DNA of 51,465 bases from a virus (Duplodnaviria > Heunggongvirae > Uroviricota > Caudoviricetes). Positions 1,422-50,132 of the stretch are shown here, piece after piece. The notes under the pieces were generated by a model. The model was not told where the DNA came from, ran no database searches, and was given only the letters and a program-made list of their open reading frames with translations. The stretch is taken from IMG/VR virus record IMGVR_UViG_2872152978_000009; one strand, given 5' to 3'. The translations under genes and the position numbers were made by a program. The number at the start of each line of letters is the position of its first letter. Position 1 is the first letter of the stretch.

Positions 1422-3896
1422 TTAAAAATCAGCCTGATTCGGGATCAGTTTTTGCCAGATAACTGAAACGTATTTTGCCTGGTAACGGGCGTCATCAAGT
1501 GCATTATGGCGCTCACCTTCGAATGGAATAGCCGTTCTGGCATCGAAGTCTATGGCTTTCCCCAGCTCAACGATTGTGCGTACATCGCGATCGTTGTAGT
1601 AACGCCACGGGCAGGGGATCCCCTGCCGTTCGTATGAACGGCGCAAAATCGTGTTGTCGAAGTTGGCTCCATTTCCCCAGACCTGAACAAAAAATTCACC
1701 GGAGTTTTCGTCGATAAATTCCCGCAATTGTAACAGTGCATCATCTAACGGGATTTCATCGGTCATAATGGCAGATTGCGCTTCGCGTGATTGCTTAAGC
1801 CACCATTTAATGGTGTCCCGATCAATGACCCCGCCAGCAGTTTCCAGATCGATAGTCTTACTAAATTCCGGTCCCATATCTCCGGTTTGCGGATCGAAAA
1901 ATATTGCACCTATTGAGATGATCGGGGCATCAGGATTTTTTCCCATGGTTTCAAGGTCGATCATTAGATGGTCACACGTCCTGCTGGTGGATGTGATTTC
2001 TTGATGACCGTTCACCTTAATTGAGTGATCTGCCGTCTCGCCAGTTTCATTATCGCTATCGTGATGCTGATTGCCGTCAGTGTTCTCCTTGTGTGGATGT
2101 TCAGCGCCTTCCATTTCCTCCGGATCATCTTCCTGAACTTCAACCTGATACTCTTCATCGAATGTTTCCTGGTATGTTGCGTCGCCCATCACCGCGCCAC
2201 AATCAGGGCAGTTGCCGCCGCCGGTCTGACCGCAGGCGGTGCAGACTTTTTCCACTTCCTGTTGCGCCACTGGTTCAGGCTGTTTCGTTTCTGGCTCGTT
2301 TTGTAACGCATTTGGGCTGTTTTGTTCCGCTTTCTGGCCGTTCTGTTCCGTTTCTTGCTGGTTCTGATTCACTGAATCGCGGGTTTCAATCCCCTTCACC
2401 CATTTCGGATCATTCGGGTCGCTAATCCCTGCAACAAATTCACCACGTGATACAGCAAGCAAATTATTGGCGTCAGGCTGGCTGATATTGGCTGCCTGCA
2501 TAATTTTGTTTACTTCGTCAGCGGTAACTTTTACCGGCTCTGGTTGTGCGATCGTGTCAGATGCACCAGTATTTTGTTGTGAACCTGAGTACGTGCCGTT
2601 TTTACGTGCGAAGTATTCCTCTTTTGTGATTTCCGTAGCTCCCAGGGCCAGTGCTTTTTCCAGACCAGAAAGTTTGTTTGCGCGACCGTATTTTTCGCCG
2701 TCCTTATCGGTGAAAAGGAAGTAGAACGGTCCCTCACGCTCTACAGATGGTTCGTCTTCCACTTCGCATTCGGTTTTTTCGTTGTCCGGCATTGCCGTTT
2801 CCACTGCATCAGTTTCTGGTACTGGTGACGGGAGAGTACCAGCTGTGCCCTGATTTGTTCCTTCGTCATCTTCAAACACGCCCTTGGTAGTCAGGTATTC
2901 AGTGATGTATTTGTTCAGTGCTACGGGATCTTTGTGAATGTCGATCGGACGCTCACGGACAAGGCCAAAAATAGTCTGACGGTCGTAGCGAACGGCATCG
3001 GGTTGTTTGCGCATTGATGCGGAAATGCGCTTCCAGTCTTCGCGATCTTTGTCGATAACTTCATTTTTTGCCCAGCGATGGATGCTGCCGTCAATGTTTC
3101 CGGTATCAATATCGCCAGGCCAGAGAGCGTAGGCCAGTTCTTCATCCAGCGTTTTCCATGTCTGCTTGTATTCGCGACAAATGGCGGCAGTGACTGGGTT
3201 GATTTTTCCTGCTGAGTTTTCAGTGTTCTGTTGATTGACTCTGGCGCTGGCGAGATCAACAACAGACGTGTATTTTCCAGTCTCTTTGCGCTCTGCGTCC
3301 TGCCGTTTTTTCCAGTTACGTAATTCAGCCTGAATTTCGGGCCATTTGGCACCCGGATTACATTTGTGTTTAACCCATCCGATAGCGAACAGTTTGCGTT
3401 CCGGATACATAGCGTTAATTTCAGGCGTTTTCATCAGTGCTTCAACGATATGCCCGTCAAAGGTAGCAACGTCTTCCTGCAGTAATTCCTGCGCGTCAAT
3501 CGCCATATCAACGGTGATGTTTTCACATGTACCGAACTTAACCAGGACCGCGTTCTGTACTTCAAGGGACAGCTTGTCAAAATTGACGTTCATCGGATCG
3601 GATTCTGGTTCGACTGGAATAAAGGAAGCGGATTCCTCATCCCAGCGGTTTTCCTGCATATATTCAGCATCCCAGGAATCGAGGGCAGGGCGGGGTATAC
3701 CGGGTTTATCCTCGCAGACAAGAAATTTATAAGCGCAGTCCTGAGCAGCCGGATAATGTTCCAGGAATTGCCAGTGAAATTTTGCGCGGGCGCGACGTTC
3801 ATCACCGGCTTCAATGGCAGTGGCTACAGCGACGGCACCTTCTTCCTTTATTGCCTGTTCGTCCGGAATGGCGGCGCAAATAAAGACTTTACTCAT
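1422..3896 (-). CDS. Large prophage exonuclease, RecE-like architecture with C-terminal DnaQ/DEDDh-type 3'-5' exonuclease domain
   Basis: 824-aa ORF; acidic low-complexity centre, Cys4 motif CTACGQTGGGNCPDCG, C-terminal DLETMG...ALDDA exonuclease-type motifs; no partner annealase ORF adjacent. Confidence 0.75.
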   Translation of the reverse strand: MSKVFICAAIPDEQAIKEEGAVAVATAIEAGDERRARAKFHWQFLEHYPAAQDCAYKFLVCEDKPGIPRPALDSWDAEYMQENRWDEESASFIPVEPESDPMNVNFDKLSLEVQNAVLVKFGTCENITVDMAIDAQELLQEDVATFDGHIVEALMKTPEINAMYPERKLFAIGWVKHKCNPGAKWPEIQAELRNWKKRQDAERKETGKYTSVVDLASARVNQQNTENSAGKINPVTAAICREYKQTWKTLDEELAYALWPGDIDTGNIDGSIHRWAKNEVIDKDREDWKRISASMRKQPDAVRYDRQTIFGLVRERPIDIHKDPVALNKYITEYLTTKGVFEDDEGTNQGTAGTLPSPVPETDAVETAMPDNEKTECEVEDEPSVEREGPFYFLFTDKDGEKYGRANKLSGLEKALALGATEITKEEYFARKNGTYSGSQQNTGASDTIAQPEPVKVTADEVNKIMQAANISQPDANNLLAVSRGEFVAGISDPNDPKWVKGIETRDSVNQNQQETEQNGQKAEQNSPNALQNEPETKQPEPVAQQEVEKVCTACGQTGGGNCPDCGAVMGDATYQETFDEEYQVEVQEDDPEEMEGAEHPHKENTDGNQHHDSDNETGETADHSIKVNGHQEITSTSRTCDHLMIDLETMGKNPDAPIISIGAIFFDPQTGDMGPEFSKTIDLETAGGVIDRDTIKWWLKQSREAQSAIMTDEIPLDDALLQLREFIDENSGEFFVQVWGNGANFDNTILRRSYERQGIPCPWRYYNDRDVRTIVELGKAIDFDARTAIPFEGERHNALDDARYQAKYVSVIWQKLIPNQADF

Positions 3897-3991
3897 TTTG
3901 TTTTAACCTCATTACAGATTTCAGGGTGAACGAATCCCTGCCATTGCTGGCATTTTTAATCCGTTGGTATGGCGTTAATATGGCTGGCGGG

Positions 3992-4180
3992 TTATCCAGC
4001 CGGTATTTCGTTATTCAGGTTCAGCGATACTTTTTTTAACGGGAGGCATTCACCGGGGATTTTTTGTTCGTCCCTTACCTGAATGCAGGATGACTTACTG
4101 TCATAAATTCCGGTAATCACATTTTGTGGCTCACCCGTTATAAGAAAAACGGTCATCACCAGTGCAAATGCTGAAGTCAC
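3992..4180 (-). CDS. Hypothetical small protein with hydrophobic N-terminus
   Basis: 62-aa ORF with GTG start overlapping the stop of the upstream ORF (GTGA); N-terminal MTSAFALVMTVFLITG is signal/TM-like. Confidence 0.35.
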   Translation of the reverse strand: MTSAFALVMTVFLITGEPQNVITGIYDSKSSCIQVRDEQKIPGECLPLKKVSLNLNNEIPAG

Positions 4181-4365
4181 TGCTGTTCTCCGATAATACC
4201 AAGTTCAAGAAGGGCAATTCTGGAAAGTATGGAATTATCATTGAGAAGATAAGGTTCATATTTTCTCATCTTAATGGCATCTTCCGTAAACTCCCGGTTA
4301 CTGAGCAGAACACCAATATCAAAACAACCTTCAGACGTATTAACGTTTGGTAATAACGTTTCCAT
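4177..4365 (-). CDS. Hypothetical small protein
   Basis: ATG at 4365 preceded by GAGGA ribosome-binding site on the minus strand; 62 aa; the track ORF extends to 4470 from an alternative start. Confidence 0.4.
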   Translation of the reverse strand: METLLPNVNTSEGCFDIGVLLSNREFTEDAIKMRKYEPYLLNDNSILSRIALLELGIIGEQQ

Positions 4366-4897
4366 TATCGCGTCCTCAACAATGAATTTTGTGATGCGGT
4401 GCCTGGTGCCTCCAGGTGACGTTAACCAGTTAACAATTAACGCCGGATACAGAGAATCCACCCATAACACTGTTTTTGGTTTTAACTGTTCCGCGTGCGC
4501 TCAGCCGCATTCACCACATCACAAAATTCACTTTAAAAAGGGCGGCAGAGCAGTCACGGAGTAAAACTGATACCGCCAAACGTCACCAGAAAATTGATAA
4601 CAGAGGGCGTTGCAGCGGGGTTGTCACTTAAGCGTATGGTCAACCTGACAACCCGGTGTCCTCAGCGGGGGAAGGAATAACCCCGCCATACTTACCGCCG
4701 CGCCATTTCGCGGATTGCCACAACCGGAAGCGCACGATCGAATTAAATTTAACGACGACCTATACAGAGAGACTAACTTCTCCGGGCGCTTTCGTGTTAT
4801 GCCCTGACTTTTCAGGGATATATCCTTTTCAGTAAACTGTCAGTGCCGGATTCTTATCCGTGTCCGGCGCACGCACTCTACCTCACCTGTGAATAAA

Positions 4898-5284
4898 TTA
4901 ATGATTAATTGATATTTTGTTGTTTGATTCAACTTTCCCATCGGATGTGTGATGCTTTAAATCACAGGAATTAATACTGCTTGCTGTAAAATGATTTTCA
5001 AGGGGTTCTATTCGAATCCCTTTCTTTTTCATTAACAAGCCAAACCCCTTATCAATGATGTCCATTAGATCCAGGAAGTATTTTTCATGTAAATCCTGGT
5101 TATCAGAGAGCTGCTTCTCTTCGTACAGCCCGATAAAGGCTCGGCGTACGTTACCGGATATATTGTCGATGGTTTCTTTTTCTACGGTACTCAGGTCAAG
5201 AGTCGCCAGTTGAGAGCGAACCACATTCGATGCCATTTCCTGGAATGGTACTGGTAAATCTTTAAATTCCATCGTCAACCTCAT
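4898..5284 (-). CDS. Hypothetical protein co-oriented with the repressor gene
   Basis: 128-aa ORF; internal ATG at 5272 has a better GAGG ribosome-binding site; no recognisable family. Confidence 0.5.
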   Translation of the reverse strand: MRLTMEFKDLPVPFQEMASNVVRSQLATLDLSTVEKETIDNISGNVRRAFIGLYEEKQLSDNQDLHEKYFLDLMDIIDKGFGLLMKKKGIRIEPLENHFTASSINSCDLKHHTSDGKVESNNKISINH

Positions 5285-5624
5285 CAGTCGGAGTTTCTTG
5301 CTAACCAGCGACGCGCGCCAGCTTCGGTTTTAAACGTTTTGCTTTTGGTATACGTCATGGCGGTGAATGTGCCGTCCTGGTTGGGGAGCACACCACATAC
5401 CAGAGATTCGCTGTTGCCAAGATCGATAGTATCCATGCTGACCTCATTACCCTTAACGCCGGGTAGCGGAACTGTTTGCTGAGAACACCGTGCGGTGTCT
5501 TGATGGGTGGTAATTTAGTTTTCCCATGAATATTGGTCAAGCATTTTTAATGAGAAAACTCAATATTTAATGCAAAATAAAGCCAATACATTGAAATGTA
5601 AGGCTTTAAAATTTGTGAAGGGGG

Positions 5625-6032
5625 TTACTGATGTTTGTTACGTTTGCGAGCTTCTAGTAGCTCGGTGAATAGGCGATTAAAATTCTCAACGCGGGCACGG
5701 AGTTCGCTGATTTGTGCTTGCTGCTCTGATTTTGGAAGTGCGCGATACAATCGCAACATCTCCAACTCATCTTCCGATAAGTCTAAGGCGCTGTTGAGTG
5801 CTACTGGTGGATCTGGTGTTTTATCCTCGTCACCAAACAGTATCCAAGTTGGTGAACATTGCAATACCTCAGCCAGGCGATGCAAATTTTGCCCGCGCGG
5901 GGCTGTATGGTCGCTTTCCCATAGTGAAATTGATGAGCCAGATACGCCAGCGGCTTTGCTTAAATCGTTTTGACTTAAACCAACCTGTTTGCGTCTTTCT
6001 CTAATTCGTTGACCTAAAGTTTTCTCGTTCAT
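5625..6032 (-). CDS. dicA: DicA-like HTH (XRE-family) prophage repressor
   Basis: 135 aa; N-terminal HTH GQRIRERRKQVGLSQNDLSKAAGVSGSSISLWE and the LQCSPTWILFGDEDK segment recalled from E. coli DicA; divergent from a Cro-like gene. Confidence 0.85.
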   Translation of the reverse strand: MNEKTLGQRIRERRKQVGLSQNDLSKAAGVSGSSISLWESDHTAPRGQNLHRLAEVLQCSPTWILFGDEDKTPDPPVALNSALDLSEDELEMLRLYRALPKSEQQAQISELRARVENFNRLFTELLEARKRNKHQ

Positions 6033-6109
6033 ATTTAGATATCTTAATAACCCTTGACTCGAGATTCCTTGAATGATTGCTATTGAGAAAACTCAACTTT
6101 GGAGGGGTG
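6033..6109. promoter_or_regulatory. Divergent promoter/operator region of the immunity switch
   Basis: 77-bp intergenic spacer between divergent repressor and Cro-like genes; contains near-palindrome ATTTAGATATCTTAAT. Confidence 0.45.
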
Positions 6110-6337
6110 ATGTTTAAATCAGACGTAATTAATTTTTATGGGACGAAAGCCAAAGTAGCGAAAGCTGCTGGTGTTGATCCATCTGCTGTTTCTCAATGGG
6201 GGGAACTGGTTCCTGAAGGTCGCGCGATGCGCCTGCAAGAGGCATCCGGCGGGGAACTTCAGTACGACCCCAAAGTTTATGACGAATATCGTAAGGCAAA
6301 GCGGGCGGGGCGGTTGAACAATGAAAATCACCCCTGA
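6110..6337 (+). CDS. dicC: DicC/Cro-like small HTH regulator
   Basis: 75-aa ORF with GGAGGGG ribosome-binding site; HTH AKVAKAAGVDPSAVSQW; divergent from repressor. Confidence 0.75.
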   Translation: MFKSDVINFYGTKAKVAKAAGVDPSAVSQWGELVPEGRAMRLQEASGGELQYDPKVYDEYRKAKRAGRLNNENHP

Positions 6338-14074: not shown

Positions 14075-14285
14075 AAACGGTTTGCGGGAAAAGGAGAGTT
14101 AAGTAGAATTGCAGCGGGTGCTTGAGGCTATCTGTCTCAGGCATGAACACCAAAAGGCAGATAGAGAAAAGCCCCAGTTAACATTACGCGTCCGGCAAGA
14201 CGCTTAACATTAATCTGAGGCCATATCTATGCTCTACACACGTAGGTTAGCCTCTTACGTGCCGAAAGGCAAGGAGAAGCAGGCT

Positions 14286-14441
14286 ATGAAGCAGCAAAAG
14301 GCGATGCTAATCGCCCTGATCGTCATCTGTTTAACCGTCATTGTGACGGCACTGGTAACGAGGAAAGACCTCTGCGAGGTACGAATCCGAACCGGCCAGA
14401 CGGAGGTCGCTGTCTTCACAGCTTACGAACCTGAGGAGTAA
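14286..14441 (+). CDS. hok: Hok/Gef-family type I toxin
   Basis: 51-aa MKQQKAMLIALIVICLTVIVTALVTRKDLCEVRIRTGQTEVAVFTAYEPEE; AAGGAGAAG ribosome-binding site; overlapping upstream open frame consistent with a mok-like leader; structured 3' region. Confidence 0.85.
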   Translation: MKQQKAMLIALIVICLTVIVTALVTRKDLCEVRIRTGQTEVAVFTAYEPEE

Positions 14442-49548: not shown

Positions 49549-50132
49549 TGGCATTCAGAATGAGTGAACAAGCACGGACCATAAAAATTTATAATCTGCT
49601 GGCCGGAACTAATGAATTTATTGGTGAAGGTGACGCATATATTCCGCCTCATACAGGTCTGCCAGCAAACAGTACCGATATTGCACCACCAGATATTCCT
49701 GCTGGCTTTGTGGCTGTTTTCAACAGTGATGAGGCATCGTGGCATCTCGTTGAAGACCATCGGGGTAAAACGGTTTATGACGTAGCGTCAGGGGACGAGT
49801 TATTTATTTCTGAACTCGGTCCGTTACCGGAAAATGTTACCTGGTTATCGCCGGAAGGGGAGTTTCAGAAGTGGAACGGCACTGCCTGGGTGAAGGATAC
49901 GGAAGCAGAAAAAATGTTCCGGATCCGGGAGGCGGAAGAAACAAAAAACAACCTGATGCAGGTAGCCAGTGAGCATATTGCGCCGCTTCAGGATGCTGCA
50001 GATCTGGAAATTGCAACGGAGGAAGAAACCTCATTGCTGGAAGCCTGGAAAAAGTATCGGGTGTTGCTGAACCGTGTTGATACATCAACTGCACCTGATA
50101 TTGAGTGGCCTACGAACCCTGTCAGGGAGTAA
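49548..50132 (+). CDS. tfa: Tail fibre assembly protein Tfa
   Basis: 194-aa nearly collinear with lambda Tfa. Confidence 0.9.

Follow-up and report, generated by a model that had tools for sequence, protein, structure and literature searches.

The window analysed here is a 51,465-nt stretch of DNA from a virus of the class Caudoviricetes (IMG/VR record IMGVR_UViG_2872152978_000009), and this work concerns its positions 3897-5624, which adjoin a gene for a DicA-type repressor. All genuine features within this region lie on the minus strand and are read leftward, away from the repressor. Followed in that direction, they are the repressor gene, a PL-like promoter with operator palindromes, ydfA, an open reading frame (ORF) of 124 codons called here orf124, a 305-nt untranslated leader, the small RNA (sRNA) DicF, a long-stem spacer, dicB, ydfD and an exonuclease gene (Table 1). 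There can be very little doubt that this DNA belongs to a Qin-like lambdoid prophage of Escherichia coli and represents its early-left operon of the PL type, dicBF. Its leader contains a pseudoknotted RNA element which occurs also in other temperate phages, and most of the argument below is devoted to this element.

The dicBF operon is among the oldest known prophage operons encoding an sRNA and toxins. RefSeq contains loci of equivalent annotation (dicF, dicB, ydfD) which share 99% identity with the full 1.7 kb, and parts of this stretch were matched in 4,747 of 5,426 complete E. coli genomes. Variation in the gene set is common; the version in which orf124 replaces ydfB and ydfC is present in 222 E. 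coli genomes. The gene order agrees with that of the K-12 prophage Qin (dicA-ydfA-ydfB-ydfC-dicF-dicB-ydfD-ydfE) and of phage Tritos: ydfA, dicF, dicB and ydfD were all found in the Qin order, while orf124 stands in place of the absent ydfB and ydfC. A strain devoid of ydfB has been reported (PMC5069750). Judging from these near-identical, annotated copies, the system is one already known. The region had been regarded in the original prediction, made from the sequence alone, as a plausible site for an uncharacterised module, a view which is untenable since DicF, DicB and YdfD have been published and the RefSeq loci are annotated alike. The coordinates of the four minus-strand ORFs reported there, 4898-5284 (128 aa), 4177-4365 (62 aa), 3992-4180 (62 aa) and 5355-5540 (61 aa), are right, and so is the co-orientation of the DicA-like repressor with them.

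Table 1. Features of the dicBF region and its borders, in the order of leftward reading
Feature	Coordinates	Strand	Evidence
DicA-type repressor, 135 aa	5625-6032	-	NCBIfam NF007257 DicA 238 bits (cut-off 101), over all 135 residues; Pfam HTH_3
Terminator-like hairpin	5573-5615	-	fold -12.3 kcal/mol, z = -3.67, then UUUAUUUU
PL-like promoter (dicBp equivalent)	5512-5564	-	promoter scan, inverted/direct repeats
Spurious ORF, 61 aa, TTG start	5355-5540	-	without family match
ydfA, 50 aa, DUF1391	5284-5436	-	Pfam PF07151 98 bits; phrog_751
orf124, 124 aa (128 aa from 5284)	4898-5272	-	phrog_6937 257 bits
DicF leader, upstream part	4733-4897	-	aligns to K-12 ydfC-dicF gap
Pseudoknotted RNA element	4603-4732	-	covariance model R1, 147 bits
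DicF sRNA, 53 nt, with intrinsic terminator	4540-4592	-	Rfam RF00039 76.7 bits (gathering 48)
dicF-dicB long-stem spacer	4381-4532	-	fold -71 kcal/mol, z = -5.32
dicB, 62 aa	4177-4365	-	Pfam PF05358 129.5 bits; NCBIfam NF049927 111 bits (cut-off 100)
ydfD, 62 aa, DUF1482	3992-4180	-	Pfam PF07358 56 bits; phrog_1092
Exonuclease, 824 aa	1422-3896	-	Pfam Rv2179c-like 3'-5' exoribonuclease domain 227 bits

The first gene of the operon, ydfA, had been missed before. Its product is 86% identical to YdfA of K-12 and gave no significant match among the sequences of the PDB. The ORF 5355-5540, already considered of doubtful coding value, is spurious. It runs over ydfA in another frame and across the promoter, searches of Pfam, PHROGs, NCBIfam and PADLOC assigned it to no family, and what was taken for its TTG start belongs to the -35 hexamer TTGACC. 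Two of the three remaining proteins, all thought to be unknown, belong to described families. The product of 4177-4365 is DicB, 61% identical to its K-12 counterpart, with a conserved N-terminal half and a diverged C-terminal third; it matches the family profiles over the full length and above the curated cut-offs (27 bits in Pfam), and its ORF sits inside a longer one starting with GTG. The product of 3992-4180 is YdfD (DUF1482; Pfam cut-off 25), 46% identical to the K-12 lysis protein and bearing a hydrophobic N-terminus; the start of its gene overlaps the stop of dicB, an arrangement consistent with translational coupling. The exonuclease gene corresponds to ydfE, which is a pseudogene in K-12 and intact in the present prophage; the alignment with K-12 continues into ydfE, and the exonuclease gene extends the leftward operon toward xis and int.

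DicB was shown to inhibit division through MinC and to confer about 100-fold resistance to λ and other ManYZ-dependent phages (PMC6832061), while YdfD inhibits IspG, which leads to cell lysis (PMC8835842). By analogy, DicB of the present prophage would bring MinC to mid-cell, halt division and block entry of ManYZ-dependent phages, and YdfD would inhibit IspG and lyse the cell. The suggestion that exclusion or host-killing functions reside at this site was therefore correct in kind, as exemplified by λ exclusion by DicB and lysis by YdfD, but these functions are published ones and act upon derepression. Searches of Pfam, PHROGs, NCBIfam and PADLOC showed none of the ORFs of the arm to resemble N, Kil, SieB or Rex by family or sequence, as had been stated previously, and the search for known anti-phage defence genes with PADLOC yielded only a chance-level AbiEi match to YdfA (E = 0.027).

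The question of when the arm is expressed can be approached through the sequences separating it from the repressor gene. The stop codon of the repressor gene is immediately followed by a terminator-like hairpin with a U-rich tail, which argues that the repressor transcript would end ahead of the operon promoter. A promoter scan revealed the sequence TTGACC-17-TAAATT, with the -35 hexamer at 5535-5540 and the -10 hexamer (TAAATT) at 5512-5517; the K-12 transcription start, as deduced from the 813/814 cleavage site and the 190-nt species discussed below, maps within ~5 nt. A 16-bp palindrome, AATGAGAAAACTCAAT, is located just upstream of the -35, with a related arm lying across the spacer and the -10. 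The palindrome, ATTGAGAAAACTCAAT with one mismatch in each copy, has only two copies in the whole window, at 5549-5564 and at 6082-6097, the latter being the repressor/cro intergenic region, so that both stand at early promoters. It is likely that this palindrome serves as the operator of the DicA-type repressor, and its placement would then follow the logic of OL and OR of λ. Since the repressor is only 55% identical to DicA of K-12 and the -35/operator region could not be aligned to K-12, the prophage appears to have an immunity specificity of its own.

In K-12, dicBp is repressed ~22-fold by DicA and has been likened to PL of λ; expression of dicBF in stationary phase is low, and spontaneous derepression occurs in a subpopulation of cells (PMC10448788). 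The own promoter, the operator copies, the terminator-like hairpin and the repression of dicBp in K-12 led us to infer that the arm is an early-left operon silent in lysogens, and not, as originally proposed, one expressed in the lysogenic state together with the repressor. In a lysogen, the DicA-type repressor bound to the operator palindromes which flank and overlap the promoter (5512-5564) would keep the operon off, as was demonstrated for K-12. Derepression would result in a single leftward transcript encompassing ydfA, orf124, the 305-nt leader, DicF, dicB, ydfD and the exonuclease gene, and probably xis and int.

The opposite assumption, that of an uncharacterised module co-expressed with the repressor in the lysogen, like rexAB of λ, and acting in exclusion or host modulation, could draw on the common orientation of these genes and the repressor, on the lack of a known family for orf124, on the low stationary-phase expression and subpopulation derepression just mentioned, and on the exclusion which DicB confers when expressed. 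We regard it as highly improbable. A promoter, operator copies and a terminator-like hairpin separate the repressor gene from ydfA, the K-12 homologue is under 22-fold repression by DicA, and toxicity upon expression is documented for three of the products, which are characterised.

Within 4565-4897 no ORF of 60 aa or more is present on either strand (the plus strand has nothing longer than 59 aa and the minus strand nothing longer than 31 aa), as noticed previously, and no tRNA or tmRNA was detected there. The description of this block as AT-rich was mistaken, as its GC content of 51.1%, compared with 43.9% for the whole of 3897-5624 and 52.0% for the window, makes it the most GC-rich part of the region. 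The proposal that it may contain a structured RNA turned out to be well founded: DicF overlaps its low end (the Rfam match, to model positions 1-52 of 52, spans 4540-4591), and a covarying precursor domain lies beside it. The 53 nt of DicF are identical to those of K-12, and its terminator (-15.9 kcal/mol) is followed by U5.

DicF pairs with the ftsZ mRNA, blocking translation, and with several metabolic mRNAs; a 72-nt species of it was described as well (PMC5069750). In K-12, a 190-nt DicF is made by RNase III and the 53-nt form by RNase E, and no internal promoter was found (PMC10448788). The published RNase III cut at 813/814 maps by homology between 4731 and 4730, that is 6 nt 5' of the closing helix of the pseudoknotted element, whereas the 5' end of DicF lies 16 nt 3' of this helix. 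The element would thus be exactly the non-DicF portion of the 190-nt species. With the K-12 sites transferred by homology, RNase III would cut 6 nt upstream of the pseudoknotted domain, leaving a long DicF of ~190 nt, RNase E would then cut in the 16-nt linker to yield the 53-nt DicF, and DicF together with Hfq would block translation of ftsZ and several metabolic mRNAs.

More than 3,400 E. coli genomes contain the upstream part of the leader, 4733-4897, at an identity of ~90-93%; this part forms a stem whose 3' strand bears the inferred RNase III cut. A hairpin of the leader, CCCUGAAAAGUCAGGG (4802-4817, minus strand), resembles λ boxB in its 5' arm and loop; a compensatory variant of it, CUCUGAAAAGUCAGAG, is found in one further copy of the locus (L018), where it directly abuts the element. 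Neither a boxA nor an N-like protein was recognised alongside the hairpin at 4802-4817.

The core of the element has 116 nt (4609-4724) and consists of five helices and a pseudoknot, as supported by an alignment of 25 non-redundant copies. It is closed by the helix GUUGUGGC / GCCACAAC (4717-4724 / 4609-4616), and its interior comprises hairpin A, a short CGGU/ACCG helix around the variable hairpin B, and hairpin C with an invariant loop of 19 nt; the pseudoknot GUAUGG:CCAUAC joins the junction to the loop of hairpin C. In this alignment 92.4% of the cells are paired, as against 30-55% when the partners are slid, and 13 pairs changed on both sides, as against 3-7 in the slid controls; none of 500 shuffles matched the observed covariation values. 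A model-based alignment of 40 copies gave 93.9% of paired cells and 17 compensatory pairs, the slid controls of the two alignments together spanning 30-56% of paired cells. Changes of this kind include a series of U-A, U-G and C-G (the last in P1) at one pair of the pseudoknot, and a single U-A to C-G switch in the CGGU/ACCG helix of P7-like copies. The same helices were recovered by RNAalifold and by folding of the single sequence. The covariance and fold comparison across homologous prophages, which had been recommended for the ORF-free block, brought clear evidence of covariation and disclosed a pseudoknotted element.

The covariance model built from these copies, R1, has one match in the window, and no second copy of the element was found with it in the rest of the window, the rightward operon included. 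Comparison with Rfam 15 produced no hit to the element at E <= 5 over 3800-6200; at E <= 10, the 156-nt slice 4585-4740 gave only a chance match of 9.9 bits. Searches of the open-access literature for the invariant strings, for 'dicF-like' and for a structure of the DicF precursor found no description of it. We considered whether the 31-aa minus-strand ORF at 4640-4735, which falls within the element, might be coding and rejected this on account of single-base indels in hairpin B (CCCCC in the window, CCCC in K-12) and of the compensatory variation in the stems. Three DicF-linked copies (L018, L063 and L138) are devoid of the 5' strand of the closing helix, other upstream sequence adjoining hairpin A there; either the closing helix is dispensable or these copies are decaying.

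The element is not confined to dicBF operons: similarity searches showed a piece of the leader of ~100 nt to be conserved independently in other phage contexts. In P1 and P7 it is situated just downstream of the C1-controlled promoter Pban, in P1 at ~25-45 nt from the promoter; in CPS-53-, cdtI- and Stx2c-type prophages it follows the repressor; in a pPE4-type phage it lies between dicA and kil; and it is present also in phage-plasmids. At none of these loci was there an Rfam DicF match. Pattern scans added further copies from IMG/VR and from Citrobacter, Serratia symbiotica, Trabulsiella, Erwinia tracheiphila and Izhakiella. What follows the element differs from class to class in sequence and is uniform in kind: a GC-rich hairpin with a U-run occurs 20-80 nt past it in all 26 representatives, 24 of which were scored by the terminator scan and two (L011 and L145) identified by reading the sequence. 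Among 143 copies, the 3' module contains the DicF seed in 91 and another linker-and-terminator module in 52. In a CPS-53-like locus, the interval from the repressor to the element gave no hit in the promoter scan.

Some of these loci have peculiarities of their own. Copies from Serratia symbiotica (L136), Trabulsiella (L145), Erwinia (L147) and Izhakiella (L148), together with L055, all of them CPS-53-like, have an enlarged terminator loop with a strong Shine-Dalgarno AGGAG and an AUG or GUG, from which a short ORF (MFYR.../MFCR...) runs through the 3' arm of the terminator; this ORF could encode an attenuation-like leader peptide. In the phage labelled Actinobacillus vB_Apl-pPE4 (L009), the linker-plus-terminator module is tandemly duplicated (2575-2760). 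Although the stated host is another, the immunity region, with DicA, YdaT, Kil and exodeoxyribonuclease VIII, has the look of one from an E. coli lambdoid phage. The Stx2c phage locus L008 has matches to C4 antisense RNA (80 bits) and isrK (60 bits) at 39-227 on its minus strand. Lying at a distance of a few kb from the element, they represent a second immunity module based on RNA.

As regards the function of the element, we tentatively favour, at somewhat below even chances, a cis-acting scaffold for maturation and stability. Such a scaffold would set the two processing sites and shield the long species, and it could carry exchangeable 3' modules composed of a seed and a terminator. This possibility is put first because the edges of the element coincide with the two processing sites and because the long species is stable in K-12. 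Several points weigh against the picture as a whole. The folding energy of the single element sequence is unremarkable (z = -0.8). The 34 invariant columns of the alignment are loop and junction nucleotides, which suggest a specific partner and would be needless for a passive scaffold. Moreover, repression, processing sites and protein activities of the present prophage are all carried over from K-12, and with a repressor, DicB and YdfD as diverged as indicated above target specificity could differ.

The invariant loops and junctions combined with covarying stems would also be expected of an RNA on which a protein docks, and one may imagine processive antitermination of the put type. RNA polymerase modified by the element would pass the following and later terminators to reach dicB, ydfD, the exonuclease gene, xis and int; elsewhere read-through would extend to kil, or to the tRNAs and ban in P1, and unmodified polymerases would stop, leaving an RNA of ~190 nt. 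The element indeed always resides in repressor-controlled early transcripts (from Pban in P1, and between the repressor and the first early gene in CPS-53- and pPE4-like phages), an intrinsic terminator comes after it in every class, read-through is needed for the downstream genes, and no N-like protein was recognised among the ORFs of the arm. On the other hand, the best R1 score in the HK022 immunity region, which holds putL and putR, is 6.5 bits; a second copy is missing from the rightward operon and the rest of the window; a multi-helix pseudoknotted RNA of ~116 nt contrasts with the two stems and ~70 nt of put (PMC9378689); and the K-12 literature attributes the RNA ends to nucleases alone. 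We therefore consider antitermination unlikely.

Still less probable, in our estimation, is a riboswitch-like RNA which would sense a ligand or a protein and set termination, or release of the 3' sRNA, according to the state of the host. The size, the multi-helix junction, the pseudoknot and the invariant unpaired nucleotides amid covarying stems are typical of aptamers, an intrinsic terminator is always adjacent, and the element has no Rfam family. However, inspection by eye across the classes, with no dedicated computation, revealed no convincing conserved antiterminator pairing between element and terminator; the 3' modules are wholly different between the classes; the DicF seed must remain single-stranded in order to act; and the host range is narrow (phages of Enterobacterales), so that some of the invariance may reflect recent ancestry.

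The scaffold hypothesis concerns what the element does for DicF. A broader one, which we hold to be possible though with somewhat less confidence, is that it represents an undescribed class of phage RNA, a portable 5' module with an active function in early transcripts that are under repressor control, in at least four unrelated types of temperate phage: Qin-like, CPS-53/Stx2c-like, pPE4-like, and P1/P7 with phage-plasmids. The hosts would be Escherichia, Shigella, Citrobacter, Serratia, Trabulsiella, Erwinia and Izhakiella, and the function might be taking polymerase past the terminator, sensing of a host factor, or providing a chassis for swapped sRNA seeds. If this is true, DicF is merely one cargo of a wider RNA family. 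Up to now DicF has been viewed as a 53-nt sRNA released from a "long untranslated region"; the covariation shows the remaining 116 nt of the 190-nt precursor to be a pseudoknotted structure under selection. Understanding of the element could explain how prophage sRNAs are built and regulated, or how N-less phages pass early terminators, and it would supply databases with a missing RNA family.

A separate problem is the spacer between dicF and dicB. Its outer stem of ~21 bp ends just 5' of the dicB Shine-Dalgarno sequence and is likely an RNase III substrate whose cleavage would give the 3' end of the 72-nt DicF. A long stem lying just 5' of the first cistron that follows also brings to mind the RNase III site within the N leader of λ. 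With the Rfam family STnc100 (RF02076) the spacer shares a long outer stem and the hairpin CACC-GGAGGCACC-GGCACC; its score of 38.7 bits is below the gathering threshold of 47, and it is not a called member. A full-length STnc100 (130.6 bits) is present elsewhere in the window, at 19606-19797 on the plus strand, directly downstream of tRNAs at 19181-19253 and 19264-19337. Partial STnc100-like matches follow tRNAs in P1, P7 and a P1-like plasmid (L007 2842-2961, L010 2910-3025, L004 4385-4505), and another precedes kil in pPE4 (L009 2766-2950). STnc100-like structures seem to form a long-stem processing module that recurs where RNA genes are followed by mRNAs. In the CPS-53/Stx2c-type loci L005 and L008, a stem of ~22 bp, ACAAAACAGAGAAGAGCAUCACC ... 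GGUGUUCUUCUCUGUUUUGU, occurs after the terminator and before the first gene (~3200-3290 in L005), placed like the long stem that precedes dicB.

The only part of the arm which remains a candidate for something new in function is orf124. Its start is most likely at 5272, which is the RefSeq start, has a GAGG Shine-Dalgarno and agrees with the PHROG profile aligning from residue 5. The gene fills the slot of K-12 ydfB and ydfC, and its product has no similarity to YdfC and no match in Pfam, NCBIfam or PADLOC. Its homologues number 222, almost all from Escherichia (E. albertii and E. marmotae among them, and one from Salmonella), and none has a name; an exhaustive search gave 37 representatives, again only unnamed enterobacterial proteins. 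The N-terminal ~55-60 aa, which also match phrog_1363, 2151 and 9419, are conserved and the C-terminus is variable, homologues sharing the N-terminus with different C-termini. The AlphaFold model is mainly helical (predicted local distance difference test score, pLDDT, 64), and Foldseek returned nothing from the PDB at E < 0.7. In the scheme outlined above, orf124 would encode an accessory protein in a variable slot. The interval between ydfA and the leader appears to be a cassette site, occupied by ydfB and ydfC in some prophages and by orf124-type proteins in others, and makes a reasonable hunting ground for new host-modulating proteins.

Two further RNA matches were noted in the window. A sok antitoxin RNA at 14116-14291 on the plus strand (117 bits) indicates a hok/sok-type toxin-antitoxin locus in the prophage, and an Rfam IS009 RNA match (223.8 bits) lies near the right end of the window, at 49891-50089 on the plus strand.

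Among known systems, put of HK022 offers an analogy of position only: it is a structured RNA in early operons of an N-less lambdoid phage, upstream of terminators. It is found in both early operons, whereas our element occurs once per phage. The PL operon of λ has the equivalent place on the left side of the repressor and is likewise under the control of repressor operators. Both operons encode a small division inhibitor with an FtsZ-directed effect, which in λ is Kil; the λ operon differs in that rexAB is expressed in the lysogen from PRM/PLit and the dicBF operon is not. In phage P1, the 'dicF-like region' downstream of Pban (NC_005856 68791-68892) carries the element itself (95-98 bits with R1) and, as in dicBF, an intrinsic terminator after it within a repressor-controlled operon. 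The P1 region has no Rfam DicF match at E <= 0.1, so that only the precursor domain is alike, and its closing helix and 3' module are unlike those of the dicBF copy.

The closest relative is the dicBF operon of K-12 Qin. Gene order and strand logic are common to both, with a DicA-family repressor directly upstream. Overall identity is 81% in the alignment that takes in the leader, spacer, dicB, ydfD and the beginning of ydfE. It is 90% for ydfA together with the stretch from the promoter -10 downstream, the -35 and the operators remaining outside the alignment. The two operons differ in the repressor (55% identity), the operators, DicB (61%) and YdfD (46%), and in the occupants of the variable slot, which are ydfB and ydfC in K-12 and the unrelated 124-aa gene in the present prophage. 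K-12 has retained only the ydfE pseudogene, interrupted by IS2, whereas in the present prophage the exonuclease gene, xis and int are intact.

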